From the NCBI RefSeq assembly GCF_964194155.1, contig NC_135906.1, positions 20,646,001-20,710,000 of the forward strand: DNA of 64,000 nucleotides, in the 5' to 3' direction. Within the stretch, counting starts at the first letter, position 1. Each line of letters begins with the position of its first letter. This DNA comes from Cetorhinus maximus. Its lineage: Eukaryota. Below the pieces are notes generated by a model. The model had not been told where the DNA came from. It saw only the letters and a list, made by a program, of their open reading frames with translations, and did not search any database. The translations under genes were made by a program, and so were the position numbers. Shown one piece after another: positions 11,466 to 46,430 of the stretch.

Positions 11466-11509
11466 TTACTGGTAGTACAGCTCCAGGTTCATTCCATCAT
11501 GGATCTCAT
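11466..11509 (-). CDS. UBL5: UBL5/Hub1 copy A, last coding exon ((Y)EIHDGMNLELYYQ*)
   Basis: Minus strand gccttaaccaggctgctttcag|ATGAGATCCATGATGGAATGAACCTGGAGCTGTACTACCAGTAA; C-terminal YYQ typical of UBL5. Confidence 0.96.
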
Positions 11510-11599
11510 CTGAAAGCAGCCTGGTTAAGGCGTATAAATGCTTAGAATGCACAGGCTGCATTAAGGTGTCCAATTAAATCCTAACCTGAATGCTAGGAG

Positions 11600-12480
11600 G
11601 CAAAAAGTTGTCAATGGGTTTGAATCTGGTTTGCAAGTGGCTACTGTTCCACAGAGATTGATGTTAGGAATTTTGCTATTTACAACTGGTATTAATAACC
11701 TGCTTTAAGAGTTGGGGAGATGATCCACAGGTTTTCAGAATTTACAAATTATGTGCGAGTATTAAAACTGAGAGAATCCTCAATTCCTGCAAACAGCGGA
11801 ATTTGTTGGAGAAATGGTCCAACAATTGGCAAATAGCATTTAATTTAAAAATATAATGTTATGCATGCAAACAAGTCTCATGCTAAATACGTGCACAATG
11901 TGCAGTGAACAGATTAGAGGCCATTGGTGAAAGAAAAGGAGCTGGGTGTTAAGAACATCACTCTCAAAATGATCATGGTCAAGTATAATGCTGCAGTTTC
12001 AAAACAAGCAAGATCTAGGCTCTATTCACATGATAATTTACCAAGATAAAATGTTTCCCTTGTACAAGATGTGGGTTAGACCTCCTTTAGAATATTGGCT
12101 CCAGTGTTGATTTTCCAATAATATGGTTGGGTAGCAGGAAAAGATGCAGAGAAGAGCCACAAGAGCATTATCCGGATTAAAATATCTTCATCACCCAAAC
12201 AAGCTCATCAGTCTATATACTGTAGAAAAGTTAGAGACTCTGGTAATTGGATCAAGGTTTAGAAAATAACGAAGGAGCTGGATTGCATTTACATGGACTG
12301 GGGTCACACTTATAAGCTATGCCATGGCAGGACTAGACTTGATGTTAGGCAGCATTTCTATTCCCAGAGACTAATTGAACAGGCCCTTGGCTGGTGAACA
12401 GGTCATCTCATTCAAGGGTTGGATATCCTACAACAAAGTGTCAACACAATTTCTTGTGACTAGTTTCAACCATCTAAAGT
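11600..12480 (+). mobile_element. Old, heavily decayed CR1-like RT fragment in UBL5 intron
   Basis: Residual RT-like order of motifs; no open frame. Confidence 0.5.
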
Positions 12481-13482
12481 GCTCAGAGAGAAATAGTCTG
12501 GATATTTTTTCCTCTAATTGGCCCGTTAATCCTTTTTATGCATCTCCCAGGAGACTATGTGGATCCAGGGTGAATAAGGTAGCATAATGCATCACAACGA
12601 TATGCAGCAGGCCAGATAGAAACAGTGGATAGAAGGAATAAAATCTCTGACATCTGGCAGAACGGTCCCAAGTGAATGGTTACAGATATAGTCTCAACTG
12701 AGTTCCTATTAGACTAAGTCAAGCAAAATTGTGCTTAATTTGACGGCAATTGGTAGTCTTCAAGAAGTCAGGAGGCGGCTGGTACAGGAAAGAGGAGTTG
12801 CATTCAGATTTGGGAAGGGTGAAAAGGGGAGGAAGGAGGTCACACTTAAAAGACTTACTCTGCATTTGGTCCATTCAGTACTCAAAGCCAAAAGCAAACC
12901 TAAAGTAAAGGTTCTATCCCATCCTTCATGTTACTCAACCTTGAAATCTACTGTAACCAGACAAACAAATTTTTTCCCTATAAATCACCCTTTGGACAGG
13001 TGCGTGGGCAGGTGCACAAGGACAATTGTTTCTATGGTATGAAACAGGAGCAGCTACCTTCCAATAGGTGCAATTCTTCCTTAAAGTCATGGTTAAAATT
13101 ACCCTTGTTGATGGGAGAATAGTTTGCCAATACACTCTGCTCCCAAGACTTTACCTGTGCTCATCAATATGCATCTCTATTCAATAACCACAAAATGTTC
13201 TACACTTGCGTGTGGACCATGAGTCTTCACTGTGGGATCTTGACCTCCCTAGGGTTCTGAAGTCAGCAGATTACACTCTCTGTATTTTTGACTTGCAAAT
13301 GTTGCAAACTAATAGGAAAAAAAAAATCTTTGTTCAGCAATATTTTCCTTTTGTAGACAAGCTTCTAGAAGTTAGAACAGGGTAGTGTAAGGAGTGTCTA
13401 AGTATTTTCTTATCCCTTCTGCCCCCATTCATACAGAAAAGGCTGGAAGCTATTGGCATAGTTTTATAACATCAAAAGATAC

Positions 13483-13520
13483 AATCTTGCAACTGAACGT
13501 GATTCTTGAAGATGGTATAC
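13483..13520 (-). CDS. UBL5: UBL5 copy A, coding exon 3 ((W)YTIFKNHVQLQD(Y))
   Basis: ttccag|GTATACCATC...CAAGATT|gtatctttt; 38 nt, phases fit. Confidence 0.95.
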
Positions 13521-13893
13521 CTGGAATCAGAACAAGTTAAATTAGAACAAATAATCCACTGGGACATTACAAGATGATGCTTCCAATTTCCACACAAGGA
13601 CCAAAATGCTGAAAAGTTACAATCCACACACGTGGAATGAAATTCTTTTTACATCGAGATAAATTCAATAAATATCTGCCCAATTTAATTTTTTTTTGCA
13701 AAAGGTGATTAGCATTCTAGATAAGCACATTAAACAAGTAGGAGGATATGCTGATAGGGTTAGATGAAGCAAACAACGAGAGGAGGCTCATCTGAAGCCC
13801 AGGTGTATGCCGGAGTTTGTTTCTGTGCTGCAAATTCTATGTAATTCAGGAAATTAGTGCCACTAAGCTATATAAGAGAACATAAGAACAAAC

Positions 13894-13977
13894 CATTTCT
13901 TTAGGACGAGCTTGTCCCATTTTGTTCCAGTCTGCGCAGCTATCAATTTCTTCAGGTCTTTTATGCTATCATCAGGA
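13894..13977 (-). CDS. UBL5: UBL5 copy A, coding exon 2 ((N)[27 protein letters not shown](W))
   Basis: ttccttaatttctgcctccag|TCCTGAT...AAATG|gtttgt; 84 nt. Confidence 0.96.
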
Positions 13978-14329
13978 CTGGAGGCAGAAATTAAGGAAAA
14001 AGAAGTCTCCAAGTTCGTGCCATTCTGTTTTTACTGCTCATGTGGCCTACTTTTGTAAAGTCGTAAAGTACATTCTGTGTGACTGTTACCATAGTGCATT
14101 ATCCCCCTTCACCTTCACTGCAGCTTCAGACAGTGCGGACCACACCATCCAGTTTAGGCCTTTATTCATTTAAGACAGGAGCAACCAAACCTTTTGCTTA
14201 GCTGAAAAAAAAGGCAGAGCCTCAAACACCACAGATTTGTATAACAAGCTGCAGTTCTGACACCCCAAAACATTTTGTTTCCAATTTTCACTCAATTATA
14301 ACTAATAATTTTGGGCTAATAAGATAACC

Positions 14330-17300
14330 ACCCCATCACACCCCAGTCAGAGAAGAGTGGACCTGCAGGAAACAGTCAGGAGCTGAGGTGGGCCTATAAA
14401 TACAGACCAGAGATTCGAGTGAGGCCTACCTTACTGGGAGTTGGAGCGGAGCTGAGGAGCGCGCGCTGTTTCAGCTGCAGTGAGGATGTTGCAGCAGTGG
14501 GACGCGGGAGCTTTTGGATGCCAAGGCGATCCATGGCAAACACATCTGCAGGAAGTCTAAGCAGCTTGAGGAATTTGGGATCAGAATTATTAATCTGGAA
14601 GCCAAAAAGCAGACACTGCACATCATAAGGGAGGTGGAGAAATATCTAGATACTTTGTTCCAGATGACAGTCACACCTCTTAGAAGCGGGTCATCTGTTT
14701 TGGTCAGCAGGATGTGACTGTCAATGAGGCAGGTAATGGGACAGAGCAGGCAGTAGTGGAGGAGCCTCAGACTTTGCAATTGTCAAACAGGTTTGAGGTA
14801 CTCACAACCTGTGTGGATGAAAGTGAGATCTGCAAGGTGGACGAGCTGACTGGCCATGGCACTGTGGCATAGGAAGCCATTCAAGCAGGGGGAGCAAGAA
14901 GGAATGTAGTGGCAGTAGCGGGTAAACACTGTTCTCTGCAGTAAGGAGAGTGAGAGTCTAGATGGCTATGTTGCCTGCCCGGTGCCAGGATTTGGGACAT
15001 CTGCTCAGGGCTGGAGGGAACTTGCAGTGGGAGAGGCAGGATTCAGTTGTCGTGGTCCATTTAGGTACCAGTGACAGGTAGAATCGGGAAGAGATTCTGC
15101 AAAGTCAGCATGAAGAGCTAGATACCAAATTAAGAAGCAGAACCTCAAAGGTAGCAATCTCTGGATTATTACCTGAGTCACGTACAAATTGACATAGGGC
15201 AAATAAAATTAGAGAAGTGAATGTGTGGCTGAAAGACTGGTGAGGGAGAAGCGGGTTCCGGTTTGTGGGGCACTTGCATCAGTACTGGGGAAAGTGGGGG
15301 TGTGCCGTTGGGACGGTTTACACCTGAACCATGCTGGGACAAGTGTCCTCACAAATCACAAAACTAGTGAAGTCAAGGGGGTTGAGGGTTAAGCTTGGGT
15401 AGAAGTAGCAATTTAAGGAGTAGAGTCAAGACAGGGGAGGGAAATAGTAATGAGAAATGAGGGTCAGTGAATGGTAGGAAGGGATAGAGAAAAAAATCTA
15501 AGAACACATCAACAGTCAAGACTAGACATTACAAAGGTAACAAAAAGACAAAACCGAAGGCTCTCTATCTGAATGCACGTAACATTCATTTACTTTCTTA
15601 TGAATGCATGGCCCACATTGAAGTAAATAAATATGATCTGATAGCAATTACGGAGACATGGATGTAGGACGACATAGATTGGGTCCTTAATATTGAAGCG
15701 TACATGGCTTTCAAGAAGAATAGGAAGCTTGGAAAAGGTGGAGGGACAACACTGTTAATCAAAGAGGGCATTGATGCAATAGTTAGAGATGACCTTGGTT
15801 CAGGAGATCAGGATGTAGAATCGGTTTGTTTGAAGATGAGGAATAGTAGGGGAAAAAAGTCATTAGTGGGAGTGGTCTACAGGCCCCCTAACAGTAACCA
15901 CGGTGTAGGACAAAGTATTCAAGAGAAAATATTGTGTGCTTGCAATAAAGGGATAATAATAACCATGGATGATTTTAATCTACATATAAGCTGGAAAAAT
16001 CAGACTGGCAGTAGTAGCTGGGATGAGTTCATAAAATGCTTTCAAGATAGTTTCTGGGACCAACCAGACAGCAGGTTATATTAGACTTGGTATTGTGTAT
16101 TGTGACAGGATTAATTAATGACCTCAGGGTAAAGGCACCTCTAGGTAGCAGTGGTCACAACATGCTTGAATTTTACATTCAGTTTGAAAGGGTGAAGTAT
16201 GAATCTAAGACTAGTATCTTAAACTTAAATAAGGGCAACTATGTGGGGACAAAAGCTGAGCTAGCTGAAGTGAACTGGGAAACTAGGCTAGAGGAAAGAT
16301 CAGTAGAGAATCAGTGGCAGACATTTAAGGGGATATTTCAGAGTATTCAGAATAAGTACATTCCTATTCTAAAGAAAAATTCTAAAGGGAGAACCCATCA
16401 TCCATAGTTAACTAAAAAAGTTAAGGAAAGCATCAAACTTAAGGAAAAAGCATACAACTCCGCAAAGATGAGTGTCGGGACAAATGATTTGGTCAGAATA
16501 TAAAGAATAGAAAGGAATGACTAAAAGGCTAATCAGGAGAAAGAAATTAGAGTAGGAGGGGAAGCTAGTTAGAAATCTAAAGACAGATAGCAAGAGTTTT
16601 TACAGGTATTTAAAAAAGAAAAGAATAAGTAATGTGAGTGTTGGTCCTCTAGAGAGTGACAATGGAGAGTTAATAGTAGATAATAAGGAAACGGCAGATG
16701 AAATGAACCAACATTTTGCTCTGTGTTCACTACAGAAGATACAAAAAACATTCCAGTAATAGATGCAAAGTAGCAAATATAATCCCTCTATTCAAGGGGG
16801 GAAATAGGCCAGTTGGCTTGATGTCTGTCATGGGGGAGTTGTTAGAATCGATCATTAAGGAGGTTTTAGCTGGGTACTGAGAAGAGCTCAAGGCAATTGG
16901 AAAGAGTCAGCATGGTTTTGTGAAAGGAAAATCATGTTTAACCAATTTATTGGAGTTTTTTTGAAGGTGTAACACGCACGGTGGATAAAGGGGAGCCTGT
17001 GGACATACTGTACTTGGGTTTCCAGAAGGCATTTGATAAGGGGTTACATCAAGGTTATTAGGAAAAATAAAAGCACATGGTGTAGGGGGTAACATGGGGT
17101 ATGGATAGAAGATTGGCTGGCTGGCAGAATGCAGAGTATGCATAAATGGGTCTTTTTCTGATTGGCAGGATGTGATGAGTGGAGACCCACAGGGATCTGT
17201 GCTGGGGTCTCAGCTTTTCACGATTTACATCAATGACTTAGACAACGGGAGTGGAGACATGGTAGCTAAATTTCTAGATGACACAAAGATAGGTAGGAAA

Positions 17301-18180
17301 GTGTGTTGTGAAGACGACATGAGGAGGTTGCAGATGGATATAGAAAGGTTGAGTGAGTGGGCAAAGATCTGGAAAATGGTGTTTAATGTGGCAAAATGTG
17401 AAGTTGTTCACTTTGACAGGAAGGACAAAAAAAAACAGTATTACTTAAATGGTGAACAGCTGCATAATTCTGAGGTGCGAAGGGATCTAGGTGTTCCAGT
17501 ACATGAGTCACAAATAGTATGCAGATGCAGCAAGTAGTTAAGAAGGCTAATGGAATGCTATCCTTTATTACGAGAGGGATTGAACATAAAAGTAAGGATG
17601 TTATGCTTCAGTTATATAGGGCATTGGTTAGACTGCATTTCAAATAGTGCGCGCAGTTTTGGTCTCCTTACTTAAGGAAGGATGTAAATGCGTTGGAGGC
17701 GGTTCAGAGGAGGTTTACTAGATTGATACCTGGAATGAGTGGGTTGTCTTATGGGGAACGGTTGGACAGACTGGGTTTGTTTCCACTGGCGTTTAGAAGA
17801 GTGAGGGGCGATTTGATTGAAGTTTCCAAGATCCTGAACAGCCTTGACAAGGTGGACGTTGAAAGGATGTTTCCTCTTGTGGGTGAGTCCAGAATTAGGG
17901 GTCACTGTTTTAAAGTTAGGGCAGATGAAGAGGATTTTTTTCTCTCAGAGGACTGTGCAACTTTAGAACTCTCTGTCTCAGAAGGTGGTGGAGGTGGGGT
18001 CATTGAATATTTTTAAGGCACAGGTAGATTGATTCCCTTGCCTAATCAGAGTCTAAGATTATCGGGGGTAGATGGAAATGTGGAAATCAAAACAGAAGTA
18101 GATCAGCCATGATCTTATTGAATGGCGGAGCAGGATCGAGGGGCCGAATGGTCTACACCTGTTCCTATTTCTTATGTTCT
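14330..18180 (+). mobile_element. Near full-length decayed CR1 LINE within UBL5 intron (antisense to UBL5)
   Basis: ORF1 remnants, APE endonuclease (VYRPPNS), RT (QGSVLGSQLFTIYINDL, FLDDTK) and 3' tail, with many stops and frameshifts. Confidence 0.92.
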
Positions 18181-18307
18181 AATAATTATAACTAATTATA
18201 TAGCCCATAATCAACAGTTAAGAAACCAACAGAAGAGTTCACTTAATGGCTGTAAATATTCCAATTAAAAAGACAGTAATGTTGCACTACCCATCTTAAA
18301 AGGATAC

Positions 18308-18363
18308 TTGCACTTCACTCGGACTTTCTTTCCTAAACGATCGTTGCAAATTATCTCAATCAT
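18308..18363 (-). CDS. UBL5: UBL5 copy A, coding exon 1 (MIEIICNDRLGKKVRVKC(N))
   Basis: ATGATTGAGATAATTTGCAACGATCGT...TGCAA|gtatcctttt. The four exons sum to 56+84+38+44=222 nt, i.e. 73 aa plus stop. Confidence 0.97.
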
Positions 18364-18949
18364 TCTTAGGAATTCCTAGGAAGATGGGAGGAAGAAAAAA
18401 AATGATGTGCTTAAAAGAAAGCTTAACAATGCAACTTTGCAGAACGCAGTGCAGAACCAAAGTACCATATCTACACGAACGTTAGAAAATTATTAAAGAG
18501 CTGTGATCCGGAACCCGATGTCTGCAAGCTTGTTGGAAGCAGATTCAATGGTAACTGCCAAAGAGAATTGGATAAATATTTCAAGTGAAGTGAAGCATGA
18601 ACAGGGCTATAGGGAAAGAGGAGAGACACAAGTTAGACAATTTCAAATAGCTAGCAAAGGTACGATAGGCCAAATGACCTTCCTCTGTACCATGCCATGG
18701 TTCTATTAGAATGCAAGGACATCCACATTTTGATCTTCACTGTATCTAAAGTCCAATACTGCCAGAGGAATAAAGTCCAATTTACAATATGGGCAAGTTT
18801 AGTCATATTTAAGCTATCATTTCCATTACATGGTCCAGTATCAAAATCGATTTGGACGCTGTAGGTGGGAGCACCGGAACGTTCCCCTGATTAGAAACCC
18901 CAGAGTGGGACTTTAACCTCCAGTCTGTTGAAATAAACTCCAGAAACAA

Positions 18950-19740
18950 CTGGCCATATAAATACTGTGGCTACAAGAGCAAGTCAGAGGCTAGAAATTC
19001 TGCAGCAAGTAACTCACCTCCTGACTCCCCAAAGCCTGTCCACCATCTACAAGGCACAAGTCAGGGGTGTGATGGAATACTCCCCACTTGCCTGGATGAG
19101 TGCAGCTCCAACAACACAAGAAGCTTGACATCATAAACAAAAACAGAATTACCTGGAAAAACTCAGCAGGTCTGGCAGCATCGGTGGAGAAGAAATCAGT
19201 TAACGTTTCGAGTCCTCATGACCCTTCGGCAGGTCATGAGGACTCGAAACGTTAACTGATTTCTTCTCCACCGATGCTGCCAGACCTGCTGAGTTTTTCC
19301 AGGTAATTCTGTTTTTGTTTTGGATTTCCAGCATCCGCAGTAGCTTTTAGCTTTTTGTTTTTATTTAAGCTTGACATCATCCAGGACAAAGCAGCCCACT
19401 TGATTGGCACCCCATCCACAAACATTCACTCCCTCCACCACTGACGCACAGTAGCAGCAGTGTGTGTACCATCTACAAGATGTATTGCAGGAACTCACCA
19501 AGGCTCCTTAGACAGCACCTTCCAAACCCACAACCACTACCATCTAGAAGGACAAGGGCCACTCACCAACCTGACTTGGAAATATATCACCGTTAGTTCA
19601 CTGTCGCTGGGTAAACACGTGGAACTCCCTCCCTAACAGCACAGTACATACACCACAGGGACTGCAGCGGTTCAAGAAGGCAGCGCACCACCACCTTCTG
19701 AAGGGCAATTAGGGATGGGCAACAAACACTGGCTATACCA
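18950..19740 (+). mobile_element. Non-LTR retrotransposon 3' fragment (L2/Jockey-like RT C-terminus)
   Basis: Matches 21090-21915; interrupted by a Penelope-derived insertion. Confidence 0.75.
19135..19366. mobile_element. Penelope-derived inverted-repeat insertion with 14-bp TSD
   Basis: Arms 19135-19223 and 19232-19320 are reverse complements; flanked by aagcttgacatcat at 19121 and 19367; absent in copy B. Confidence 0.88.
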
Positions 19741-20201
19741 ACAACACCCATATACACACAAGAAAAAACAGAAGGTGGTAGGGGTCTGGAAGTCACTACC
19801 TAGGAGGAAAGTGGAGGGAGAAACCCTCATCATGTTGCCACTTGAAATGCCTGAACCTACAAGGCTATGGACCAAGAGCTGGAAGGGGGTGGGGATGAGA
19901 CTGGATGGCTCTTTTTTCAGCTAGTACCAGCAAGATGGGCCAAACAGCCTCCGTTTCTGCTCCAGACCTTCAATCATCCATTCATTTTAACGAAATATCA
20001 AAATGAATGATCATTAATGCACCCGGGGCCCTGAATTCTCCAGCTGCCCAGACCACAAGTCCTCGGGATTTAATTAACATGCGCAGGAGGTCGTAGAAAA
20101 TCAGGCAGCTGTTTATTTACTGACAGTTTGTTGTATTTTCGAACATGTAAAGTCCCAGCTCACACTCGGGGACCGTTTATATCGGCGACATCTTCACTTA
20201 C

Positions 20202-21089
20202 CTGCTCACCTCCCCCCCCCCACGATTACTCAGGATCTCTTCCGCGCAGCAACATAACTAGGCCGCAGCCCCGCCCCTTAGCAACGGGTCCCTCCTCTGA
20301 TTGACGGCTCTCTTGGCCAATCACACCTCGGGAAAGCCAAGAAAGCGGTGCCATCGTCGCCTAGCGGACCAATAGGACCTCGGGGTAAAGAAACACCCGC
20401 CCCTTTCGCCCATTTAGAATCAGAGCAGCAATTTCTCGAAACAAAAACGTTTTAAAAAAAAAGCTTGCAACGCTTCATGTTGGTTAGATAATCTTAAAAT
20501 AAGATTTGCCGGTAAAATCATGTATTTTCGATGGTAGGAAAGCGAGATTACGGAACTCTCGCATGGTTGTCAATGCAAATAGCACAAGACATATAAATGC
20601 AGCTTTTTTTCTGTTTTCTTTCATGTCTTAATAGCCGCAATAATTTGTTTTAAGGGCGATAATACGATGGTTTTTCATATCCGAATCAGCGAACCTGAAT
20701 AAGTTGCTATCAAATATTTGGACGATTCGGGCCGAGCTGTGCTGCCCTCTTGACCAATCGGCGTATGGAACTCATGACTGACGTTTCCGGTTGTCCAATC
20801 GAAGCAAGGTATTAGCCCGAGGAGGCGGGCCTGATCTCAGGACCAATTGGGCGGGCTTACCAGGCAGTCTTGTTTTTGTTTTGGTCAGATCGCATGTCAA
20901 CGGCACGGAGGCGGGGACCTGCTCGCGACCGACATCGGGGTTGGCCAATCCCTCTCGGCGCTCTCGAACGGAGCCCTGATTGACGCGCGGATTACCCAAT
21001 CCGAATGGAGACCGTTGAAGGTGGCCTCCCAGCCCACGCCCCGCTCTTGGTTAGGGGTTATCTCCGTCCGGCTCATTCGACAAGAACCA
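20202..21089. promoter_or_regulatory. Duplicated bidirectional UBL5/PIN1 promoter, including probable non-coding UBL5 exon 1; PIN1 side orphaned
   Basis: CpG-rich; several CCAAT/ATTGG, GC boxes and TGACGT; minus-strand donor cag|gtaagt at 20201; homologous to 49041-49914. Confidence 0.8.
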
Positions 21090-21915
21090 CATTAACTGCT
21101 GTGGTTACAGGAGCAGGTCAGGGATTTGGGAATTCTACAGCGAGTCACTCACCTCCTGACTCCCCCCCCCCCCACCAAAGCCTGTCCACCATCTACAAGG
21201 CACAAGTCAGGAGTGTGATGGAATACTCTCCACTTGCCTGGATGAGTGCAGCTCCCACAACACTCAAGAAGCTCAACACCATCCAGGACAAAGCAGCCTG
21301 TTTGATTGACACCCCATCCACAAACATTCACTCCCTCCACCACCGACGCACAGTCGCAACAGTGTGTACCATCTACAAGATGCACTGCAGGAACTCACCA
21401 AGGCTCCTTAGACAGCACCTTCCAAATTCATGACCACCACCATCTAGAAGGACAAGGGCAGCAGACAGATGGGAACACCACCACCTGGAAGTTCCCCTCC
21501 AAGCCACTCACCATCCTGCCTTGGAAATATATCCCCATTCCCGCCATCCTGCCTTGGAAATATATTTCACCCCTCTCCTAACTATGCTTCAGTTCTGCCG
21601 AAGGGCTGTGAAGGCTTGAAACGTTAACTGATTTCTTCTCCACCGATGCTGCCAGACCTGCTGAGTTTTTCCAGGTAATTCTGTTTTTGTTTTGGAAATA
21701 TATCACCGTTCCCACCATCCTGACTTGGAAATATATCGGCCGTTCCTTCACTGTGCCGGGTCAAAATCCTGGAACTCCCTCCCTAACAACACTGTGACTG
21801 TACCATGGTTCAAGATGGCGGCTCAGCGCAACCTTCTCGGGGGCAATTAGGGATGGGCAACAAACGCTAACTGAGCCCGCGATTCCCACATCTTGTGAAA
21901 GAATTTTTTTAAATG
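21090..21915 (+). mobile_element. Non-LTR retrotransposon 3' fragment (L2/Jockey-like) with a nested Penelope tail at about 21590-21693
   Basis: LSTIYKAQVRSVMEYSPLAWMSAAPTTLKKL RT C-terminus; tail gggcaattagggatgggcaa shared with the SINE. Confidence 0.8.
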
Positions 21916-22109
21916 ATGAATAAGATACCTGAGGACATTGTGTTCAAGTGATTCGATGCCATTTGTTTCAACCCAAGTTGCATTCTTCCATTGTATAATT
22001 ACAGCCATAACAGATGGAACCTTCACAATAGCAGCAATATTCCTGATAGGAACAGTGAAATGTCCTGGGTTTATAACCATATCTACTAATATTAATTCAT
22101 CTCCATCAT

Positions 22110-25100
22110 ACAGACAGGCTCTAACGTTACTCCTTATCCAAGTGAATAGCACGTTTAGTGAGGTGGTTACACCGCAGGTGAAGATTACACAGGCTGAAAA
22201 GGAATGGGTGACCATCAGGAACAGTAAAAGACTCAGGAAGGTAGCGCAGGAGTCCCCTGTGGTCATCCCCCTCTCTAAGAGATATACCGCTTTGGCAGTT
22301 CTGATGAAGAGTCATTCGGACTCGAAACGTTAACTGTATTCCTCTCCGCAGATGCTGTCAGACCTGCTGAGTTTTTCCAGGTATTTTTGTTTTTGTTTTA
22401 CCGCTTTGGATACTATTTGAGGGGATGGCCTCTCAGGGGAAAGCAGCAACAGCCAAGTTCACGGCACCATGGGTGGCTCTGCTGCTCAGAATGGCAGGAG
22501 GAAAACAGGTGGCAGGGCTATAGTGATAGGGGATTCAGTAGTTAGGGGCATAGACAGACACTTCTGTGGCCGCAAACATGAATCAAGGATGGTATGTTGC
22601 TTCCCTGGTGCCAGGGTCCAAGATGTCACGGAGCGGCTGCAGGACGTTCTGGGGAGGGAAGGTAAACAGCCAGTGGTCGTGGTACACATTGGTACCAACG
22701 ACATAGGTAAACTAAGGGATGAGGACCTGCAAGCTCATTACAGGGAGTTAGGAGATAAATTAAAATGCAGGACCTCAAATGTAGTAATCTCAGGATTACT
22801 CCCAGTTCCACGTGCTAGCGAGAGCAGGAATAAGAGGATAGACCAAATGAACACGTGGCTGGAGAGATGGTGTAGCCGGGAGGGATTCAGATTCTTGAGG
22901 CACTGGGACCGGTTCTGGGGAAGGTGAGACCTGTACAAACTGGACGGGCTGCACCCAGGCAGAGCTGGGACCAGTGTCCTTGCAGGGGCTTTTGCTAGTT
23001 CTGTTGGGGAGTATTTAAACTAGTGTGGCAGGGGGATGGGATCCCGGGAGTAGGATCAGATAGGTCAGATTCAGATCAGAAAAATGGAGGTGGACCATTA
23101 GCTAGGGATGTTATGATAGACATGGAGTTACAGGAGAAGCAAAGTTTAAAAAGTGTCCAGCAAGGGAAATTGACAGGGTTAAACTGTTTGTACTTCAATG
23201 CAAGGAGTATTACAAACAAGGTAGATGAATTAAGGGCACAGGTAGACACATGGCAGCAGGATGTCATTGCTATAACGGAGACCTGGCTAAAGGAGGGACA
23301 AAACTGGCAGCTAAATATCCCTGGTTATAGAGTCTTCAGACACAATAGAGTAGGAGATAAAAAAGGAGGGGGGTAGCACTAATGGTTAAAGAATCAATTC
23401 CAGTTGTGAGAAGGGATGATATACTAAATGGGTCAACAAACGAGGCTTTATGGATTGAGCTTAGAAATAAAAAAGGGGCAGTCACACTACTGGGAGTATA
23501 CTACAGACCCCCAAATAGTGAAAGGGAGATAGAAGAACAAATACATAGGCAAATTTCTGCTTGTAAGAACAAGAGGGCAATAATAGTAGGAGACTTCAAC
23601 CATCCTAATATCAACTGGGATTCAAACAATATAGGGGGCACTGAGGGAGAAAAATTCATGCAGTGTGTCCAGGAAAGTTTTTCAACCAATTAGTGTCAAA
23701 CCCAACGAGAGGAGATGCAATTCTAGACCTAGTCTTGGGGAACGAAGAAGGGCAAGTGGGTGAAGTGACAGTTGGCGACCATATCGGGGACAGTGATCAC
23801 AATTCAGTTAGATTTAGCATTACCATGGAAAAGGACAGAGATAAGGCAGGAGTAAAAGTCTTGAACTGGGGGAAGGCAAATTTTGCAGAAAAGAGAAGGG
23901 ACTTGGCTGAGGTGGACTGGACAGCACTGCTGGAGGATAAAACAATGGAAAACCAGTGGGAAGCACTAAAAAGCGAGATTCTAATTGTACAAAGTAGACA
24001 TGACCCCTACAAAAATAAGAGTGGTACTGCCAAATCTAGACCCCCCTGGTTGTCTAGAGGAATACAGGGGAAGATCAAACAGAAAAAGAAAGCGTACAAC
24101 AGGCACAAAGAACTAAGCACTGCAGATAGCCTAGACGAATATAGGAAGTGCAGGGACGAAGTAAAAAAGGAAATAAGGAAATCAAAGAGAGGGCATGAAA
24201 AAAGATTAGCAAGTAAAGTTAAAGATAACCCAAAGATGTTTTACCAATACATTAATGCTAAAAGATTAGTTAAGGAAAAAGTGGGACCTATCAGAGATGA
24301 AGATGGAAACTTGTGTGTAGATGCAGAGGCTGTGGGAAGGGTTTTGAATGAATATTTTGTCTCCGTGTTTACAAAAGAAAGGGAGGATGTAGATATAGTA
24401 GTCCAGAAGGAACATTGCGAGATATTTGACGGGATAGTTATAAAGAGAGAGGAAGTACTCGAAGGGTTGAAATCCTTGAAAGTTGATAAGTCACCAGGGC
24501 CAGATGGATTGTTTCCGAGGCTGCTGAAGGAAGTCAGGGAGGAGATAGCAGATGCTCTGAGGATGATTTTCCAATATTCACTAGATACAGGGGAGGTACC
24601 GGAGGACTGGAGAAATGCAAACGTAGTTCCATTGTTTAAAAAGGGATCAAAGGAAATGCCAAACAATTATAGGCCAGTGAGTCTTACATCGGTGGTGAGC
24701 AAATGAGTAGAATCAATCCTGCGAGATAGGATTAACTGTCATGTGGAAAGGCATGGACTAGTCAGGGATGGTCAGCATGGATTTGTTAAAGGAAGGTCTT
24801 GCCTCACAAATTTGATTGAATTCTTTGAGGAAGTGACAAGAAGAATTGATGAAGGTAGTGCAGTGGATGTTGTGTACATGGATTTTAGCAAGGCATTTGA
24901 CAAGGTCCCACATGGCAGATTGGTCAGGAAAGTAAAAGCCCATGGGATTCAGGGTAATGTGGCAAACTGGATAAAAAGTTGGCTTTGTAACAGGAAACAA
25001 AGGGTAATGGTCGATGGATGCCCTTGCGAATGGAAAGTTGTCTCAAGTGGTGTTCCACATGGCTCAGTGTTGGGACCCTTGCTGTTTGTGTTATATATTA

Positions 25101-26572: not shown

Positions 26573-26920
26573 AGGTTAGCTTTACCCTATTGCTGATTGT
26601 TTCCTTGGCCTGGCATTGGCCGATTCCGGTGGGTGCAGGTTGCCATTAGATTCAGGGCTGGAGTGTGGCCAGGTGGGCAACACTTCCCTCCTGTTAATGC
26701 ACAGCATCTTCATGGGAATCCGGTGCTAAATTATTCATAAACGACCTGATTCTGGCTCAGGGTTTTGTACGTAGCTGAGCATTTATTTCGTTGGGATCTA
26801 TTGAAAGCCATCCCTCGAGCCACAGCTGTCAGTCCTAAGAGATAAGCAAATGCCATTCTGAAGGGATGGGCAACGGCCTCTGTTGTCCTCAGCCAATCGA
26901 ACGGGGCTCGGGTTCAGATA
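26573..26920 (+). pseudogene. Degenerate 28S rRNA fragment, copy B
   Basis: Duplicate of 374-720. Confidence 0.72.
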
Positions 26921-35515: not shown

Positions 35516-37675
35516 CGATGAAGAAATACATGAGTTATGATCGGGAATGCATAAACTGAATGGGCAGTGGAAGTAGATTCAAATGGGGGAAGAAGGGTGG
35601 GACTAACTGGGTAGATGTTTCAAAGAGCCAGCGCTGGTATAACAGGCCGAATGGCCTGCTTCTATACTGTATCATCCTACAATGTCAATTAGTAAATATT
35701 TTAGACAGCCCTAGGGCTTTGTACAATCTGATATCAATCTATTTACAGAATAATTAAAGGATGAGCTCAAGTCCTTTGCGAGCCAGCCTGGTGTTAATAC
35801 CATGACCTTGCCTCAGTTATGAGAAAGAGACAGGTAGACCCGACATACAGAGAGATGGACCACAGTTGGATTTCCCCTTCTGGTTCCAGGTGCCATCAGG
35901 GAGCAGGCCTCACAGTACTTCAGGTTCAGGGTAAAGGCTAAAAATACAACTGCTTCACACCAGGTCAGAATGAGGGCACACTGGCTACTTACATTCAGGT
36001 GAATGAAGAGGAAGAGAGGGAAATCATCTGCCCTCAATAGTTTTGAGATCCCAGAGAAAATACATTAGTGCACAAGTCTCTATAGCAGCTTTTGGTTCCA
36101 AAACTATGAATGTTTTGGAAGAAAAATGTGTCACACAAGAAATGTAGCAGAACAATAGATTTCAAAAAGTTACACATTTCATTGATTGGGATGCATTAGG
36201 TTTTTTGGCTTTGCAAAAACATAATTAATTTTGAATCCAAAAAGCAAATTGTCGAGGGTAAATTACAGATAGCTGCTGGTCCTGTATATCCAGTTCATTT
36301 CAACAAACTATGGAGTTTCTGGATCTACTCTGCATGAAACTACTGACAGAGAAGAGGATAGGATAGCTGCAACACATATTGGAACGGGTCATTTTATTTG
36401 TTCTTTGGATGTGTGGCTAGCAAACCTGCATTTGTTGCCATCCCTAATTGCCCTTGAGAAAGCAATGAGCCGCCTTCTTGATTCACTGCAGTCCATGGGA
36501 TGTAGGTACAGTCACAGTGCTGTTGGGGAGTTCCAAATATTTTGACCCAGCAACAGCAAAGGAGCAGCGATATCGTGCCAAGTCAGGATGGTCTGTGTAC
36601 TGGATAGGAACTTGTTTGTATGCACCTGCTACCCTGTCCTTCTAGGTGGTAGAGGTCACAGGCTTCGAAGGTACTGTCGAAAGAGCCTTGGCAAGTTGCT
36701 GCAATTAATCTTGTAGATAATACACACTGCAGCGACTGTGCACCAGTGGTGGAGGGAGGGAACGTTTAAGCTGGCGGAAGCAAAAAAACCGGTTCTGACA
36801 CAAGGTCAAGAGGGTGATTTTTATCCATTTAAAGACAAGTACATTATCTAGAAATAAAAGGTGTATTAATCAGATATTAGCATTAGCTGTCCCAGGAGCC
36901 TGCAAGGACAACTAATAAGCACTATGCATAGATCTGGTATTAAAGTACAGGTTACACAGGGAGAAAAGTGCACCATAAGAAACAGTCACAGCGAGGCAAA
37001 TCTATTTAATCCATTTAACCAATTTAAGTGTACATATTAACATGGTTCTCTTTGACATTGTCCAGTTCACAAGGGACAAAAAGTTTTTGAAGTCAAGTTA
37101 GCATTCCGTCTTGCCAACATCCTGCTAATACAATTTCTTGCATATGCACTCAGAGAAAGGAAAAATAAAATGCTTGTTTCCAACCTCTACTAAGATTAAC
37201 CCAAAAGACTGAACCTCAATAAACTATCAAGAACCATCCCCTCCCTAACCCAGTGAGCACTTCAATCTCTTGAAAGTCTTTTCGCTCTCCATGCTGGACA
37301 AATTGTCAGCAAGTACAATAGAGTGGAAAGAGTTGTGTAATGATACACCTCAGCTGTGGGAAGCACCATCACTGCTAGACTGAGTATTACACATAGCAAG
37401 GAAGGAGGAAGCACAGACAAAACAACTTTACCCATCTATAATTTTGGGATTTAGAAACCTCAGACTGGACATGGACAAGAAACCTAATAGTAAAGCTGTT
37501 CTGAAATGTAAAGTTAAAAAAAAGGGGAACATAGGTCAGTAAAGCAAAAACAAAGTGATCAGTGTTCATCAGAAAAGCAAACGCAAAAGCTTCATTGTGA
37601 AGTCATAAGTCGTTTCTCTCAGGTGAATGGTGTTGATGGTTGGTGATAACCTTGGCCTCCTCAGGGGGATAAATT

Positions 37676-37719
37676 TTATTGGTAGTACAGCTCCAGGTTC
37701 ATTCCATCATGGATCTCAT
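37676..37719 (-). CDS. UBL5: UBL5 copy B, last coding exon
   Basis: Same as copy A except synonymous CAG>CAA. Confidence 0.96.
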
Positions 37720-40322
37720 CTGAAAGCAGCCTGGTTAAGGCTTATAAATACTGAGAATGCACAGGCTGCATTAAAGTGTCCAATTCAATCCTACTTTACA
37801 CAGCAACATACAGAATTACTACGATCTGGATTACCATTTCAAATGGTATATAGCCTGGAAATAGGGTCATTGTCTTAATCCAAGCCGGAAAAATACTAAA
37901 TCTGAAACAAATAAAACAAATTTTTTGAAGTCGCCAGGTTAGTGAACAAGGGTAACTTAGTAGACAGAATCAGCTTTGGTTTTCTGAAAGCTGTGATAAA
38001 AGACTTCACAAGAAACTTCTCTAAAAGATTGAGTTACTGATAATTTTTCCCACTGAACTGAAAGCTGAATGCTAGCACAGCTAGCAGGCAAAAAGTTGTC
38101 AATGGGTTTGAATCTGGTTTGCAAGTGGCTACTGTTCCACAGAGACTGATGTTAGGAATTTTGCTATTTACAACTGGTATTAATGACCTGCTTTAAGAGT
38201 TGGGGAGATGGATCCACAGGTTTTCAGATTATACAAATTATGTGCGAGTGTTAGGACTGAGAGAATCCTCAATTCCTGCAAACAGCGCAATTTGCTGGAG
38301 AAATGGTCCAACAATTGGCAAATAGCATTTAACTTAAAAGTATAATGTTATGCATGCAAACAAGTCTCATGCTAAATATGTGCACAATGTGCAGTGAACA
38401 GATTAGAGGCCATTGGTGAAAGAAAAGGAGCTGGGTGTTAAGAGCATCACTCTCAAAACGATCATGGTCAAGGCATAATGCTGCAGTTTCAAAACAAGCA
38501 AGATTCACATGATAATTTACTAAGATAAAATGTTGCCCTTGTACAAGACTTGGGTTAGATCTCCTTTAGAATATTGGCTCCAGTGTTGATTTTCCAATAA
38601 TATGGTTGGGTAGCAGGAAAAGATGCAGGGAAGAGCCACAAGAGCATTATCCGGATTAAAATATCTTCATCACCCAAACAAGCTCATCAGTCTGTATACT
38701 GTAGAAAAGTTAGAGACTCTGGTAATTGGATCAAGGTTTAGAAAATGACGTAGGAGCTGGATTGCATTTACATGGACTGAAGAGATTTGGGGGAACCTGG
38801 GGTCACACTTATAAGCTACACCATGGCAGGACTAGACTTGGTGTTAGGCAGCACTTCTATTCCCAGAGACTAGTGGAACAGGCTGCTGGGTGGGGAACAG
38901 GTCATCTCATTCAAGGGTTGGGTATCCTACAACAAAGTGGCAACACAATTTCTTGCGACTAGTTTCAACCATCTAAAGTGCTGAGAGAGAAATAATCTGG
39001 ACATTTTTCCCCTAATTTGCCCGTTTATCCTTTTTCTGCATCTCCCAGGAGATTATGCGGATCCAGGATGAATAAGGTAGCATAATGCATCACAACTATA
39101 TGCAGCAGGCCAGATGGAAACAATGGATCTTTTCCTGCCGCTAACTTTTGTTTGTTCATGATTGGGATCGCAGATAGGCCAGACTGGGGAAAGATGGCAC
39201 ATCTTTCTGAAGGACATTAATGAAACATATTGGGTTTTTAAATTGCGTTTTACTTGCATCAGAATTTAAAACAGAATTCAAATACACAAGCTGCCATGTA
39301 GGATTGGAAACCCCTTCTCTGGGTTATTGCCTTAATTTTCAGGTAGAGTAGCATAATCACTACATTACAATCCCCAATTTATATAAAATAGTTTTGCAAG
39401 TTATCCATGCATCTGTTCATGCTTCAATGCAACTGCCTAAAGATACCTAGGCTAAGATTTAGCAAAGATAGATGGAATAAAATCCCGCTGTCATCTGGCA
39501 GAACAGTCCCAAGTGAATGGTTACAGATATAGTCTCAACTGAGTTCCTATTAGACTAAGTCAAGCAAAATTGTGCTTAATTTGATGGCAATTGGTAGCCT
39601 TCAAGATGTCCGGAGGCGGCTGGTACAGGAAAGAGGAATTGCATTCAGATTTGGGAAGGGTGAAAAGGGGAGGAAGGAGGTCACACTTAAAAGACTTACT
39701 CTGCATTTGGTCCATTCAGTACTCAAAGCCAAAAGCAAACCTAAAGTAAAGGTTCTATCCCATCCTTCATGTTACTCAACCTTGAAATCTACTGTAACCA
39801 GACAAACAAATGTTTTCCCTATAACTCAGCCTTTGGACAGGTGCGTGGGCAGGTGCACAAGGACAATTGTTTCTATGGTATAAAACAGGAGCAGCTACCT
39901 TCCAATGGGTGCAACTCTTCCTCAAAGTCATGGTTAAAATGACCCTTGTTGATGGGAGAATAGTTTGCCAATACGCTCTGCTCCCAAGACTTTACCCGTG
40001 CTCATCAATATGCATCTCTATTCAATAACCACAAAATGTTCTACACTTGCGTGTGGACCATGAGTCTTCACTGTGGGGTCTTGACCTCCCTAGGGTTCTG
40101 AAGTCAGCAGATTACACTCTCTGTATTTTTGACTTGCAAATGTTGCAAACTAATAGGGAAAAAAAAGCTTTGTTCAGCAATATTTTCCTTTTGTAGACAA
40201 GCTTTTAGAAGTTAGAACAGGGTATTATCAGGAGTGTCTAAGTATTTTCTTATCCCTTCTGCCCCCATTCATACAGAAAAGGCTGGAAGCTATTGGCATA
40301 GTTTTATAACATCAAAAGATAC

Positions 40323-40360
40323 AATCTTGCAACTGAACGTGATTCTTGAAGATGGTATAC
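40323..40360 (-). CDS. UBL5: UBL5 copy B, coding exon 3
   Basis: Identical to 13483-13520; splice sites intact. Confidence 0.95.
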
Positions 40361-40733
40361 CTGGAATCAGAACAAGTTGAATTAGAACAAATAATCCACT
40401 GGGACATTACAGGATGATGCTTCCAATTTCCCACAAGGACCAAAATGCTGAAAAGTTACAATCCTCACACATGGAATGAAATTCTTTTTACATCGAGATA
40501 AATTCAATAAACATCTGCCCAATTTAATTTTTTTTTTGCAAAAGGTGATTAGCATTCTAGATAAGCACATTAAATAAGTAGGAGGATATGCTGATAGGGT
40601 TAGATGAAGCAAACAATGAGAGGAGGCTCATCTGAAGCCCAGGTGTATGCCGGAGTTTGTTTCTGTGCTGCAAATTCTATGTAATTCAGGAAATTAGTGC
40701 CACTAAGCTATGTAAGAAAACATAAGAACAAAC

Positions 40734-40817
40734 CATTTCTTTAGGACGAGCTTGTCCCATTTTGTTCCAGTCTGCGCAGCTATCAATTTCTTCAGGTCTT
40801 TTATGCTATCATCAGGA
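40734..40817 (-). CDS. UBL5: UBL5 copy B, coding exon 2
   Basis: Identical to 13894-13977. Confidence 0.96.
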
Positions 40818-42244
40818 CTGGAGGCAGAAATTAAGGAAAAAGAAGTCTCCAAGTTCGTGCCATTCTGTTTTTACTGCTCATGTGGCCTACTTTTGTAAAG
40901 TTGTAAAGTACATTCTGTGCGACTGTTACCATAGTGCATTACCCCTCATCACCTTCACTGCAGCTTCTGACAGTGCGGGCCACACCATCTTTCTCAGAAT
41001 GCTGCTATACTATTATTATTACTATAACATCTCAAATTTAAAATCCTCATACTTGTTTAAATTCCTTCATGGTTTCCTATCTTTGTAAACTCAACTCTAC
41101 AATAACCTCTCCCCTGAACTCTCCACCACTCCGACCTTCAAGTCTGAGCACCACTCGTTCTCTGCCCTACCATTAAAAGCAATGCCTTCAGCTGCATGGA
41201 CCCATGTTCTGAGATTCACTTGCTAAACTACTCTGCCCTTCCGTGTTCTGAGCCTGCGATAAGACCTCCCTTTAATCCCCATCTTTGACCTGCATCTCAG
41301 CACCTTGTGCTGAGCAGGTTACAGTCTCTCTCAAGTATGTCACTCTTTAATGTTGTGGCTCTTAATGCAATTCTCCCCTACAATCAGAACATTGAGAATG
41401 ATCAGTGCTATAGTAATAACTGAATTTTTAAACAAGGAAATTCTAATTTAGTGAAGCTTAATGAAAAAAAAAAGCTACAATGAGGCTTTGAATTCCCAAG
41501 CTCACCATTATGATTTACAGAAAATCTAGTGACAAGGCTTGTGAACTCGCATTTTATAGGAACATTGTACGTACGAACGTATGAATTAGGAGAAGGCCAT
41601 TCAGCCCTTCGAGCCTGCTCTGCCATTCAATAAGATCGCGGCTGATCGGATTGTGGCCTCAACTCTGTGTTCCACCTACCCCCATTAACCTTGGAGTCCT
41701 TTGTTAGTCAAGAATCTACCTGCCTCTGCCTTCAAATTATTTGATGGTCCTGCCTTCATCGCTCTCTGGGGAAGTGAGAATTACGAAGATTCATGACCCA
41801 CAAGAAAAATTCTCCTCATCTCCATCTTAAATAGGAGATTCTGTATGTTAAAAATGTGTCCCCTGGTTTTAGTCTCTCCCACAAGGGGAAACCATCCTTT
41901 CCGAATCGCTTCTCCTCATAAGGTAACCACCCCCTTCACCTCAGGTATCAGTTGAGTGAACCTTCTCTGAACTGCTTCTTAAGGCAGCCTTATCTTGTTG
42001 GTTATTTCATGAAAACCCCCTCATAACAGGAAGGGTAAAAAGAGATTCTCATTCCAGTTTAGGCCTTTATTCATTTAAGACAGGAGCATCCAAACCTTTT
42101 GCTTAGCTGAAAAAAAAGGTAGAGCCTCAAACACCACAAATTTGTATAACAAGCTGCAGTTCTGACACCCCAAAATAATTTGTCTCCAATTTTAACTAAT
42201 TACAACTAATAATTTTGAGCTAATAAGATAACCACCCCTCACAC

Positions 42245-45200
42245 CCCAGTCAGAGAAGATCGGACCTGCAGGAGATAGTCAGGAGCTGAGGAATGCCTAT
42301 AAATACAGACCAGGGATTCGAGTGAGGCCTACCTTGCTGGGAGTCAGAGCAGAGCTATTTCAGCTGCTGTGGGATGTGGGAGCTTTTGGACGCCAAGGCG
42401 ATCCATGGCAAACACATCTGCAGGAAGTCTAAGCAGCTTGAGGAATTCCGGATCAGGATTATTGATCTGAAAGCCCAAACGCAGACATTGCGCATCATAA
42501 GGGAGGTGGAGAAATATCTGGATGCTTTGTTCCAGATGACAGTCACACCTCTTAGAAGAGGGTCATCTGTTTTGGTCAGCAGGATGTGACTGTCAATGAG
42601 GCAGGTAATGGGACTGAGCAGGCAGTAGTGGAAGAGCCTCAAGCCTTGCAATTGTCAAACAGGTTTGAGGTACTCACAACCTGTGTGGATGAAAGAGAGA
42701 TCTGCAAGGTGGATGAGCTGACTGGCCATGGCACTGTGGCACAGGAAGCCATTCAAGCAGGGGGAGCAAAATTAAACATAGCCGTAGTAGGGGGGTAAAC
42801 ACTGTTCTCTGCAGTAAAGAGAGAGAGTCCAGATGGCTATGTTGCCTGCCCGGTGCCAGGATTCGGGACATCCGCTCAGGGCTGGAGGGAACTTGCAGTA
42901 GGAACGCGGGATCCAGTTGTCGTGGTCCATGTAGGTACCAGTGACAGGTAGAACTCGGGAAGAGATTCTGCAAAGTCAGTATGAAGAGTTAGATACCAAA
43001 TTAAGAAGTAGAACCTCAAAGGTAGCAATCTCTGGATCATTACCTGAGTCACATACAAATTGGCATAGGGCAAATAAAATTAGAGAAGTGAATGTGTGGC
43101 TGAAAGACTGGTGAGGGAGAAGCGGGTTCTGGTTTGTGGGGCACTGGCATCAGTACTGGGGAAAGTGGGGTCTGTACTGTTAGGACGGTTTACACCTGAA
43201 CCATGCTGGGACAAGTGTCCTCACAAATCACAGAACTAGGGAACTCAAGAGGTCTGAGGATTAAGCTTGGGTAGAGGTAGCAATTCAAGGTGTAGAATCA
43301 AGACAGGGGAGGGAAATACTAATGAGAAATGAGGATCAGAGAATGGTAGGAAGGGATAGAGAAAAAAACCTAAGAATATATCAACAGTCAAGACTAGACA
43401 TTACAAAGGTAACAAAAAGACAAAACCGAAGGCTCTCTATCTGAATGCACGTAACATTCATTTACTTTCTTATGAATGCATGGCCCACGTTGAAGTAAAT
43501 AAATATGATCTGATAGCAATTACGGAGACATGGATGTAGGACGACAAAGATTGGGTCCTTAATATTGAGGCGTACATGGCTTTCAAGAAGAATAGGAAGC
43601 TTGGAAAAGGTGGAGGGATAACACTGTTAATTAAAGAGGGCATTGATGCAATAGTTAGAGATGACCTTGGTTCAGGAGATCGGGATGTAGAATCGGTTTG
43701 GGTGGAGATGAGGAATAGTAGGAGAAAAAAGTCATTAGTGGGAGTGGTCTATAGGCCCCCTAACAGTAACCACAGTGTAGGACAAAGTATTCAAGAGAAA
43801 ATATTGTATGCTTGCAATCAAGGGATGATAATAACCATGGATGATTTTAATCTACATATAAGCTGGAAAAAAATCAGACTGATAGCAGTAACCGGGACGA
43901 GTTCATAAAATGCTTTCAAGATAGTTTCTTAGAGCAACCAACCAGACAGCAGGTTATATTAGACTTGGTATTGTGTAATGTGACAGGATTAATTAATGAC
44001 CTCAGGGTAAAGGCACCTCTAGGTGGCAGTGGTCACAACATGCTTGAATTTTATATCCAGTTTGAAAGGGTGAAGAACAAATCTAAGACTAGTATCTTAA
44101 ACTTAAATAAGGGCAACTATGTGGGGACAAAAGCTGAGCTAGCTGAAGTGAACTGGGAAACTAGGCTAGAGGAAAGATCAATAGAGAAGCAGTGGCAGAC
44201 ATTTAGGGGGATATTTCAGAGTATTCAGAATAAGTACATTCCTATTCTAAAGAAAAATTCTAAAAGGGAGAACCCATCATCCATAGTTAACTAAAAAAGT
44301 TAAGGAAAGCATCAAACTTAAGGAAAAAGCATACAACTCCGCAAAGATGAGTGTCGAGGCAGATGATTTGGTCAGAATTTAAAGAATGGAAAAGAATGAC
44401 TAAAAGGTTAATCAGGAGAAAGAAATTAGAGTATAAGGGGAAGCTAGCTAGAAATCTAAAAACGGATTGCAAGAGTTTTTACAGGTATTTAAAAAAGAAA
44501 AGAATAAGTAAAGTGAGTGTTGGTCCTCTAGAGAGTGACAATGGAGAGTTAATAGTTGATAATAAGGAAATGGCAGATGAAATGAACCAACATTTTGCTC
44601 TGTGTTCACAATAGAAGATACAAAAAAACATTCCAGTAATAGATGCAAATCAGGAGGTGAAAGGGAGAGAGGAACTTGGTGAAATTGAAATCACTAGGGA
44701 AACAGTACTAAGCAAATTGATGGAGCTGCAGACTGACAAGTCTCCGGGTCCCGATGGACTTTATCCTAGGGTCTTAAAAGAGGTAGTTAATGAGGTAGTC
44801 GTGCGCTGGTGTTAATTTTCCAAAATTCACTAGATTGTGGAAAGGTTCCATCGGACTGGCAAATATAACCCCTCTATTCAAGGGGGAAATAAGCCAGTTG
44901 GCTTGATGTCTGTCATGGGGGAGTTGTTAGAATCGATCATTAAGGAGGTTTTAGCTGGGTACTGAGAAGAGCTCAAGGCAATTGGAAAGAGTCAGCATGG
45001 CTTTGTGAAAGGGAAATCATGTTTAACCAATTTATTGGAGTTTTTTTGAAGGTGTAACACGCACGGTGGATAAAGGGGAGCCTGCAGACATACTGTACTT
45101 GGATTTCCAGGAAGCATTTGATAAGGGGTTACATCAAGGTTATTAGGGAAAATAAAAGTGCATGGTGCAGGGGGTAACATGAGGTATGGATAGAAGATTG

Positions 45201-46250
45201 GCTGGCTGGCAGAATGCAGAGCATGCATAAATGGGTCTTTTTCTGATTGGCAGGATGTGATGAGTAGAGACCCACAGGGATCTGTACTGGGGCCTCAGCT
45301 TTTCACGATTTACATCAATGACTTAGACGACGGGAGTGGAGACATCGTAGCCAAATTTCCAGATGACACAAAGATAGGTAGGAAAGTATGTTGTGAAGAG
45401 GACATGAGGAGGTTGCAGATGGATATAGAAAGTGAGTGGGCAAAGATCTGGAAAATGGTGTTTAACGCGGCAAAATGTGAAGTTGTTCACTTTGACAGGA
45501 AGGACCAAAACAGTATTACTTAAATGGAGAACAGCTGCATAATTCTTAGATGCAGAGGTATCTAGGTGTTCCAGTACATGAGTCACAAATAGTATGCAGG
45601 TACAGCAAGTAATTAAGGCTAATGGAATGCTATCCTTTATTACGAGAGGGATTGAGCATAAAAGTAAGGATTTTATGCTTCAGTTATACAGGGCATTGGT
45701 GAGACCACATCTCGAATACTATGTGCAGTTTTGGTCTCTTTATTTAAGGAAGGGTGTAAATGCGTTGGAGGCAGTTCAGGTTTACTAGATTGATACCTGG
45801 AATGAGTGGGTTGTCTTATGGGGAACGGTTGGACAGACTGGGCTTGTTTCCACTGGAGTTTAGAAGAGTGAGGGGCGATTTGATTGAAGTTTCCAAGATC
45901 CTGAACAGGCTTGACAAGGTGGACGTTGAAAGGACGTTTCCTCTTGTGGGTGAGTCCAGAATTAGGGGTCACTGTTTTAAAGTTAGGGCAGATGAAGAGG
46001 ATTTTTTTCTCTCAGAGGGCTGTGCAACTTTGGAACTCTCTGTCTCAGAAGGTGGTGGAGGTGGGGTCATTGAATATTTTTAAGGCACAGGTAGATTGAT
46101 TCCCTTGCCTAATCAGAATCTAAGATTATCGGGGGTAGATGGAAATGAGGAAATCAAAACAGAAGTAGATCAGCCATGATCTTATTGAATGGCGCAGCAG
46201 ACTCGAGGGGCTGAATGGTCTCCTCCTGTTCCTATTTCTTATGTTCTAAT
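42245..46250 (+). mobile_element. Decayed CR1 LINE in UBL5 intron, copy B
   Basis: Paralog of 14330-18180; retains about 44650-44860, which copy A lacks. Confidence 0.92.
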
Positions 46251-46374
46251 AATTATAACTAATTATATAGCCCATAACCAACAGTTAAGAAACCAACAGA
46301 AGAGTTCACTTAATGGCTGTAAATATTCCAATTAAAAAGACAGTAATGTTGCACTACCCATCTTAAAAGGATAC

Positions 46375-46430
46375 TTGCACTTCACTCGGACTTTCTTTCC
46401 TAAACGATCGTTGCAAATTATCTCAATCAT
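46375..46430 (-). CDS. UBL5: UBL5 copy B, coding exon 1
   Basis: Identical to 18308-18363; U12 donor gtatcctttt. Confidence 0.97.

Follow-up and report, generated by a model that had tools for sequence, protein, structure and literature searches.

Two intact UBL5 genes in a head-to-tail tandem duplication upstream of PIN1 in the shark Cetorhinus maximus

Tandem segmental duplicates under partial concerted evolution are a familiar general class, and the locus described here is a retained tandem duplicate whose kind of mechanism is already known. It shares with that class a head-to-tail unit, patchy divergence, variants found across species and high divergence beside the junction, but it differs in its content, namely a housekeeping splicing factor together with a bidirectional promoter cut at the start codon of the partner gene. 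The splicing factor is UBL5 (Hub1), for which one study gives a single homologue in the animals and yeasts examined and several genes in plants, with AtUBL5a and AtUBL5b in Arabidopsis, three genes in rice and two in maize (PMC6857937). The plant duplicates resemble the shark locus in that one genome holds more than one intact UBL5 gene; the Arabidopsis pair, going by its locus tags, is split between chromosomes 3 and 5 and shares 94% protein identity, whereas the shark genes are adjacent and their proteins 100% identical (PMC6857937). Human UBL5/Hub1 is essential in cells and binds the HIND of Snu66 through D22 (PMC4141198). A further paper describes a Hub1/UBL5 C-terminus of di-tyrosine plus one residue, with no di-glycine, and reports that excess yeast Hub1 relaxes splice-site choice and splicing fidelity (PMC8431670). 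Our literature search, which covered few subscription papers, found no report of a UBL5 duplication in sharks.

The window, by which we mean the whole stretch of 64,000 nucleotides analysed here, contains two UBL5/Hub1 genes, copies A and B, both on the minus strand and each with four coding exons (56, 84, 38 and 44 nt):

18308..18363, minus strand, UBL5 copy A coding exon 1, from the spliced frame; probable acceptor at 18375
13894..13977, minus strand, UBL5 copy A coding exon 2, from the spliced frame and PDB matches
13483..13520, minus strand, UBL5 copy A coding exon 3, from the spliced frame
11466..11509, minus strand, UBL5 copy A coding exon 4, from the spliced frame; codon 73 is CAG
46375..46430, minus strand, UBL5 copy B coding exon 1, from the spliced frame; probable acceptor at 46442
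40734..40817, minus strand, UBL5 copy B coding exon 2, from the spliced frame
40323..40360, minus strand, UBL5 copy B coding exon 3, from the spliced frame
37676..37719, minus strand, UBL5 copy B coding exon 4, from the spliced frame; codon 73 is CAA, the letter of organism C, a related species

All three introns of each copy are of the GT-AG type with intact splice sites, and the two 222-nt frames encode the same 73-aa protein, their lone difference being the synonymous CAG (A) or CAA (B) at codon 73. The initial annotation had reported two intact tandem genes with an identical protein and a single synonymous difference in 222 nt, and we confirm both statements. Its remark that the open-reading-frame list missed the genes is correct as well; with exons of just 38-84 nt, such absence is expected and uninformative. 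Searches of the genome with UBL5 exon 2, as DNA and as protein, gave two matches each, all within the window, and its four matches among PDB chains are all UBL5 (best: 4PYU, 1P0R and the spliceosome chain 6AHD). Intron loss, by which a processed-pseudogene origin was tested, was seen in neither copy, both retaining all introns.

The encoded protein is identical to catshark UBL5 (XP_038640554.1) at 72 of 73 residues, and both copies have Asp22 and end in LYYQ, that is, in di-tyrosine plus one residue without di-glycine. They thus have the 73 aa, Asp22, di-tyrosine and lack of di-glycine of vertebrate UBL5/Hub1, and differ from it in being two intact tandem genes. The near-complete match to catshark and the retained Asp22 and di-tyrosine end give no sign of a new UBL5 function; by sequence identity, both copies would bind Snu66/SART1 and take part in splicing. 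Faster protein change after the duplication was considered and rejected, the unusual residues being common to catsharks. Probable RNA contigs of organism C pass from exon 4 straight into 30 letters of exon 3, which confirms the exon 3-4 splice, in that relative only. Two sequence types occur among these contigs (at 11245 and 11453 in run X16 and at 11374-11433 in run X17), either alleles or paralogues, and they play no part in the argument below. As a separate observation, some 55 bases of UBL5 3' UTR (window 11322-11376) occur in two organism C contigs of run X12 with unrelated flanks on both sides, possibly a small displaced copy or an insertion variant.

The genes lie in a head-to-tail tandem duplication with units of about 22 and 29 kb, each comprising an acidic open reading frame (ORF), UBL5 and the UBL5/PIN1 promoter. 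Gene order was read over the window together with 150 kb of its flanks (214 kb examined in all); it runs from a VAV-like gene, whose last SH3 exon is about 28 kb upstream, through two successive sets of acidic ORF, UBL5 and promoter to PIN1:

1..21089, tandem unit A, about 22.3 kb, starting about 1220 bases before the window
3165..4742, plus strand, acidic ORF copy A, intact, 525 aa
20150..21089, CpG-island promoter region of copy A (CpG o/e 0.96 and 1.01), its PIN1-facing half without PIN1 behind it
near 20202-20260, likely non-coding first exon of UBL5 copy A, judged from a donor motif
21089..21090, duplication junction, where a retroelement fragment follows the PIN1 5' leader, whose last base is the A of the PIN1 ATG
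21090..49914, tandem unit B, about 28.8 kb, continuing into PIN1
22144..26060 (end approximate), plus strand, LINE retrotransposon of about 3.9 kb, in unit B only
29377..30951, plus strand, acidic ORF copy B, intact, 524 aa
48990..49914, CpG-island promoter shared head to head by UBL5 copy B and PIN1 (CpG o/e 1.03 and 1.02)
49914..49971, plus strand, what we take, from a motif, to be PIN1 coding exon 1 (single copy)
58982-59131, plus strand, PIN1 exon-2 stretch, matching solved PIN1 (E 3e-18)

The final 21 bases of unit A are identical to the bases that precede PIN1 in unit B. At the junction point, other copies of the junction repeat read CCAT, from which we infer a short CCA(T) microhomology. 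The junction repeat has 8 of 15 derived letters in common with the repeat at the start of unit A, against 0-4 for seven other copies, and it is much nearer the family majority than the latter repeat (15 vs 52 derived letters), a difference for which a simple shared origin of the two would not account. The initial annotation had placed the junction across 21089-26573, an interval that we resolve differently: the break is at 21089/21090, and 21090-26572 is a part of unit B that matches DNA upstream of the window. A junction at 26573 was rejected, since 21089-26573 is mostly the 3.9-kb element inside unit B. This element, presumably a LINE by its motifs, has open frames of 168, 353 and 376 aa and the orientation of the acidic gene, and its flanks on both sides match sequence upstream of unit A, indicating insertion within unit B. 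Other repeats were observed in the region. Unit A alone has a near-perfect palindrome of 216 bp (window 19120-19335; 93%), in which the end of a short repeat occurs twice in inverted orientation. PIN1 intron 1 contains a GC-rich tandem repeat (window 50229-51677) that runs into a 200-N gap, the sole gap in the 214 kb, and the first 2.7 kb after the window form a tandem array that repeats every 70 bp, its offsets being 92-95% identical.

CpG o/e values near 1.0 at both islands suggest that both promoters remain unmethylated, and CpG losses are even between the copies (65 vs 60). The UBL5-facing ends of the promoter are 98% identical between A and B; the PIN1-facing halves (20890-21069 in A, 49719-49894 in B) are 28% diverged, with two CCAAT boxes kept in register. 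Retention of both boxes in the orphan half of A despite this divergence has a p of 0.036, a post hoc value, and among seven promoter motifs of the PIN1-facing half of B, four are altered in A and three intact (p 0.13).

The acidic protein has six relatives, with 46-59% identity over nearly the full length, and all five named ones are from sharks, including Heptranchias (XP_067828894.1), Mustelus (XP_078090790.1) and Stegostoma (XP_048377760.1). The likeness to this family is thus near full-length, and the difference here lies in the two intact copies. The protein matched no Pfam family at the cut-off and nothing in the Atlas, and only that of copy B is present as an exact sequence in the protein collection. 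Between A and B, pN is 0.020 and pS 0.037 (p 0.10), with one in-frame indel and no frameshifts against 3-6 expected (3.0 if one copy were free, p 0.05). The promoter of the acidic gene was not located in three CpG-rich stretches upstream of the unit, all of which held high-copy repeats. In catshark, a relative of the acidic gene and UBL5 are found on contigs of equal length, and this suggests that the neighbourhood is conserved. Neither this second intact gene nor the PIN1 promoter in the unit was noticed in the initial annotation, and UBL5 may possibly be a passenger.

In the alignment of non-coding DNA, 864 of 17861 sites (4.8%) differ between the two units. There are 86 gaps, nine of which measure 61-1065 bp, besides the 3.9-kb LINE in B. 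When four segments of the UBL5 exon lengths were drawn at random, one mismatch or none was found in 0.6% of 20000 draws. The intron substitutions and kb-scale indels described at the outset are real, but not every indel is a copy-specific insertion: a B-only segment near 37794-38079 also occurs in organism C (at loose ends of contigs), which makes a deletion in A more likely than an insertion in B. Divergence is patchy, with a dispersion index of 3.65, where shuffles have their 99.9th percentile at 1.5. Locally it is 1.8% at 19769-20283 and 4.0% at 11040-11579, and beside the junction it reaches 15.5% on the right (repeat) and 28.4% on the left (promoter).

Comparison with relatives places some of this pattern in time. 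Differences from A at 19769-20283 number 29 in 515 sites (5.6%) for organism C and 37 in 521 for organism B, the other related species; A and B are therefore closer to each other there than A is to the relatives, and exchange after the split is needed if the duplication predates it. Local gene conversion between the units is likely on these comparisons. At 11040-11579, A is 3.9% different from organism C (21 sites in about 540) and 4.0% from B. Among the 21 A/B sites of this segment, 11 carry the B letter in organism C and 10 have no row; seven letters are private to organism C, and 11 letters of A are absent from both B and organism C, a pattern suggesting that in this lineage the segment has seen little exchange after the split. 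Uneven constraint is another possible cause of patchy divergence. The duplication seems to be older than about 5% divergence would suggest.

The assembly between the UBL5 copies is free of N, and a contig of run X1 (20803-21192) crosses 21089/21090 with no other letters and one gap; X1 may be the assembled sample. Among the contigs listed, none spans 21192-21840. In runs X1 and X2 alike, one promoter type is missing at most sites, for which the partial reading of the runs (96% and 62%) and the cleaning of contigs may account in part. At position 19975 in X2, contig depth is 54 for A and 134 for B, nearer 1:2 than 1:1, and at 22110 it is 119 vs 108; the former leaves room for a one-copy chromosome in that individual, although uncalibrated contig depth is a weak hint and not a copy number.

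In the promoter region, the one to which the comparison of letters applies, both types could be read from depth ratios in the two related species. Among the 40 rows listed, from a table with 183 more, 13 A/B substitution sites are covered in organism C (run X8), with both letters at five, B only at three and A only at five, and three indel rows are split in the same way; in organism B (run X5), 17 sites are covered, with both letters at four, B only at four and A only at nine. The presence of A and B letters in two related species speaks against alleles of one individual, and the duplication likely predates the split from both species. A false duplication of haplotypes had been named in advance as an outcome to check for, and the contig spanning the junction and the two letter sets in two relatives both speak for a real duplication. 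In the two DNA runs of organism C, a single sequence type is present over 11040-11579, which fits two near-identical collapsed copies as well as a single copy; its depth, roughly double that of adjacent contigs (19 vs 8-11 and 32-36 vs 15-18), is a weak hint of the former.

With UBL5 coding sites weighted for the observed transition bias (163 nonsynonymous, 56 synonymous), no amino-acid change is seen against 6.7-7.8 expected at 4.1-4.8% divergence if both copies were free (p 0.001-0.0004), and against 3.3-3.9 if one copy were free (p 0.036-0.02; p 0.087 at a 3% local rate). The one synonymous change, against 2-3 expected, is uninformative either way. A/B differences lie 3 and 22 bases outside exon 4 and one, synonymous, within it, so that no recent conversion tract covers this exon. 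Exons 1-3 sit in A/B-identical runs of 149-183 bases (combined p 0.006-0.08) and are covered by three of the ten longest such runs; short conversion tracts may be part of the cause of their identity. Both UBL5 copies are likely still under selection. The earlier proposal of selection or conversion appears to hold for each process, but not as an either/or, as the conversion-like patches are non-coding and selection bears on the coding exons.

Taken together, these observations make it probable, in our judgement, that the locus is a real tandem duplication, older than the split from the two relatives, linked in part by conversion and with both intact UBL5 copies selected. It is unlikely that one of the UBL5 copies is a silent or neutral passenger with its identity owed to short conversion tracts and chance; were it so, A would be the better candidate, its promoter having lost PIN1. 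The test with one copy free yields a p of just 0.02-0.09, three of the ten longest identical runs fall over exons 1-3, A has its 11 private letters in 11040-11579, and four of the seven motifs in the PIN1-facing half are altered in A, all as such a passenger would have it; yet all splice sites are intact, the CpG island of A is undecayed, with CpG losses even at 65 vs 60, exon 4 is outside any recent tract, and the UBL5-facing promoter end has stayed 98% identical. We also consider it unlikely that the unit was kept for the acidic gene and not for UBL5, with acidic copy B gaining a PIN1-like promoter. The arrangement itself would allow this, as the PIN1-facing half of A and its leader, with no ATG at the break, stand on the strand of acidic copy B, 8.3 kb upstream of it, and the break falls at the PIN1 start codon. 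The orphan half has a CpG o/e of 1.01 and has kept both CCAAT boxes (p 0.036, post hoc), its A-type letters persist in relatives, and both acidic ORFs are intact (no frameshifts vs 3-6 expected; pN 0.020, pS 0.037). However, just three of seven motifs are intact overall (p 0.13), there is no GTRAG donor in 20860-22143, the half of A contains two ATGs, and a sense-strand LINE separates it from acidic copy B; UBL5-A by itself may be reason enough for the CpG island to persist, and the three CpG-rich stretches searched revealed no promoter of the acidic gene itself.

A lineage-specific duplication close to the split from the relatives, without conversion and with patchiness arising from uneven constraint and mutation rate, is quite improbable. 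The 3' end of UBL5 would suit it, A, B and organism C being about equidistant there and organism C of one type, but both letter sets occur in the promoter of both relatives, A and B are three times closer than A and organism C at 19769-20283, and divergence beside the junction is 15-28%. An assembly artefact, in which two haplotypes of one locus were laid in tandem, we consider very improbable, even though a single promoter type predominates in X1 and likewise in X2, and depth at 19975 in X2 is 54 (A) vs 134 (B): no gap separates the copies, a contig bridges the junction, haplotype A would require PIN1 to be broken at its start codon, and diagnostic letters are common to two other species. Shark heterozygosity is low, and 4.8% divergence, kb-scale indels and 28% locally seem too high for alleles.

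On the preferred reading of an old, conversion-linked duplication with both UBL5 copies selected, a single microhomology-guided repair event would have fused the PIN1 start codon with a retroelement lying some 22 kb upstream of it. The acidic gene, UBL5 and the promoter between UBL5 and PIN1 would thereby have been copied, without any PIN1 coding sequence. Later exchange between the neighbouring units would have reset divergence in patches, with the junction-side DNA escaping, and transposons and deletions would since have accumulated in each unit. Each UBL5 copy would yield a normal, non-conjugated spliceosome cofactor, and total UBL5 output may be up to twice the single-copy level or divided between the copies. 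A more far-reaching version, in which an ancestral duplication, fixed in a shark clade, cut the promoter exactly at the PIN1 ATG, gave acidic copy B a housekeeping-type promoter and left two active, conversion-linked UBL5 genes, is tentative and improbable as a whole; if true, it would amount to an enduring natural experiment on UBL5 dose in a vertebrate.

With the protein unchanged and the mechanism of a known kind, the relevance of the locus is moderate and of a specialist nature. It illustrates that percent identity can under-date duplicates, and related shark assemblies may have collapsed the UBL5 region. A lineage that has carried two intact UBL5 copies across speciation would offer a natural case in which the dose of this splicing factor is tolerated, buffered or used.
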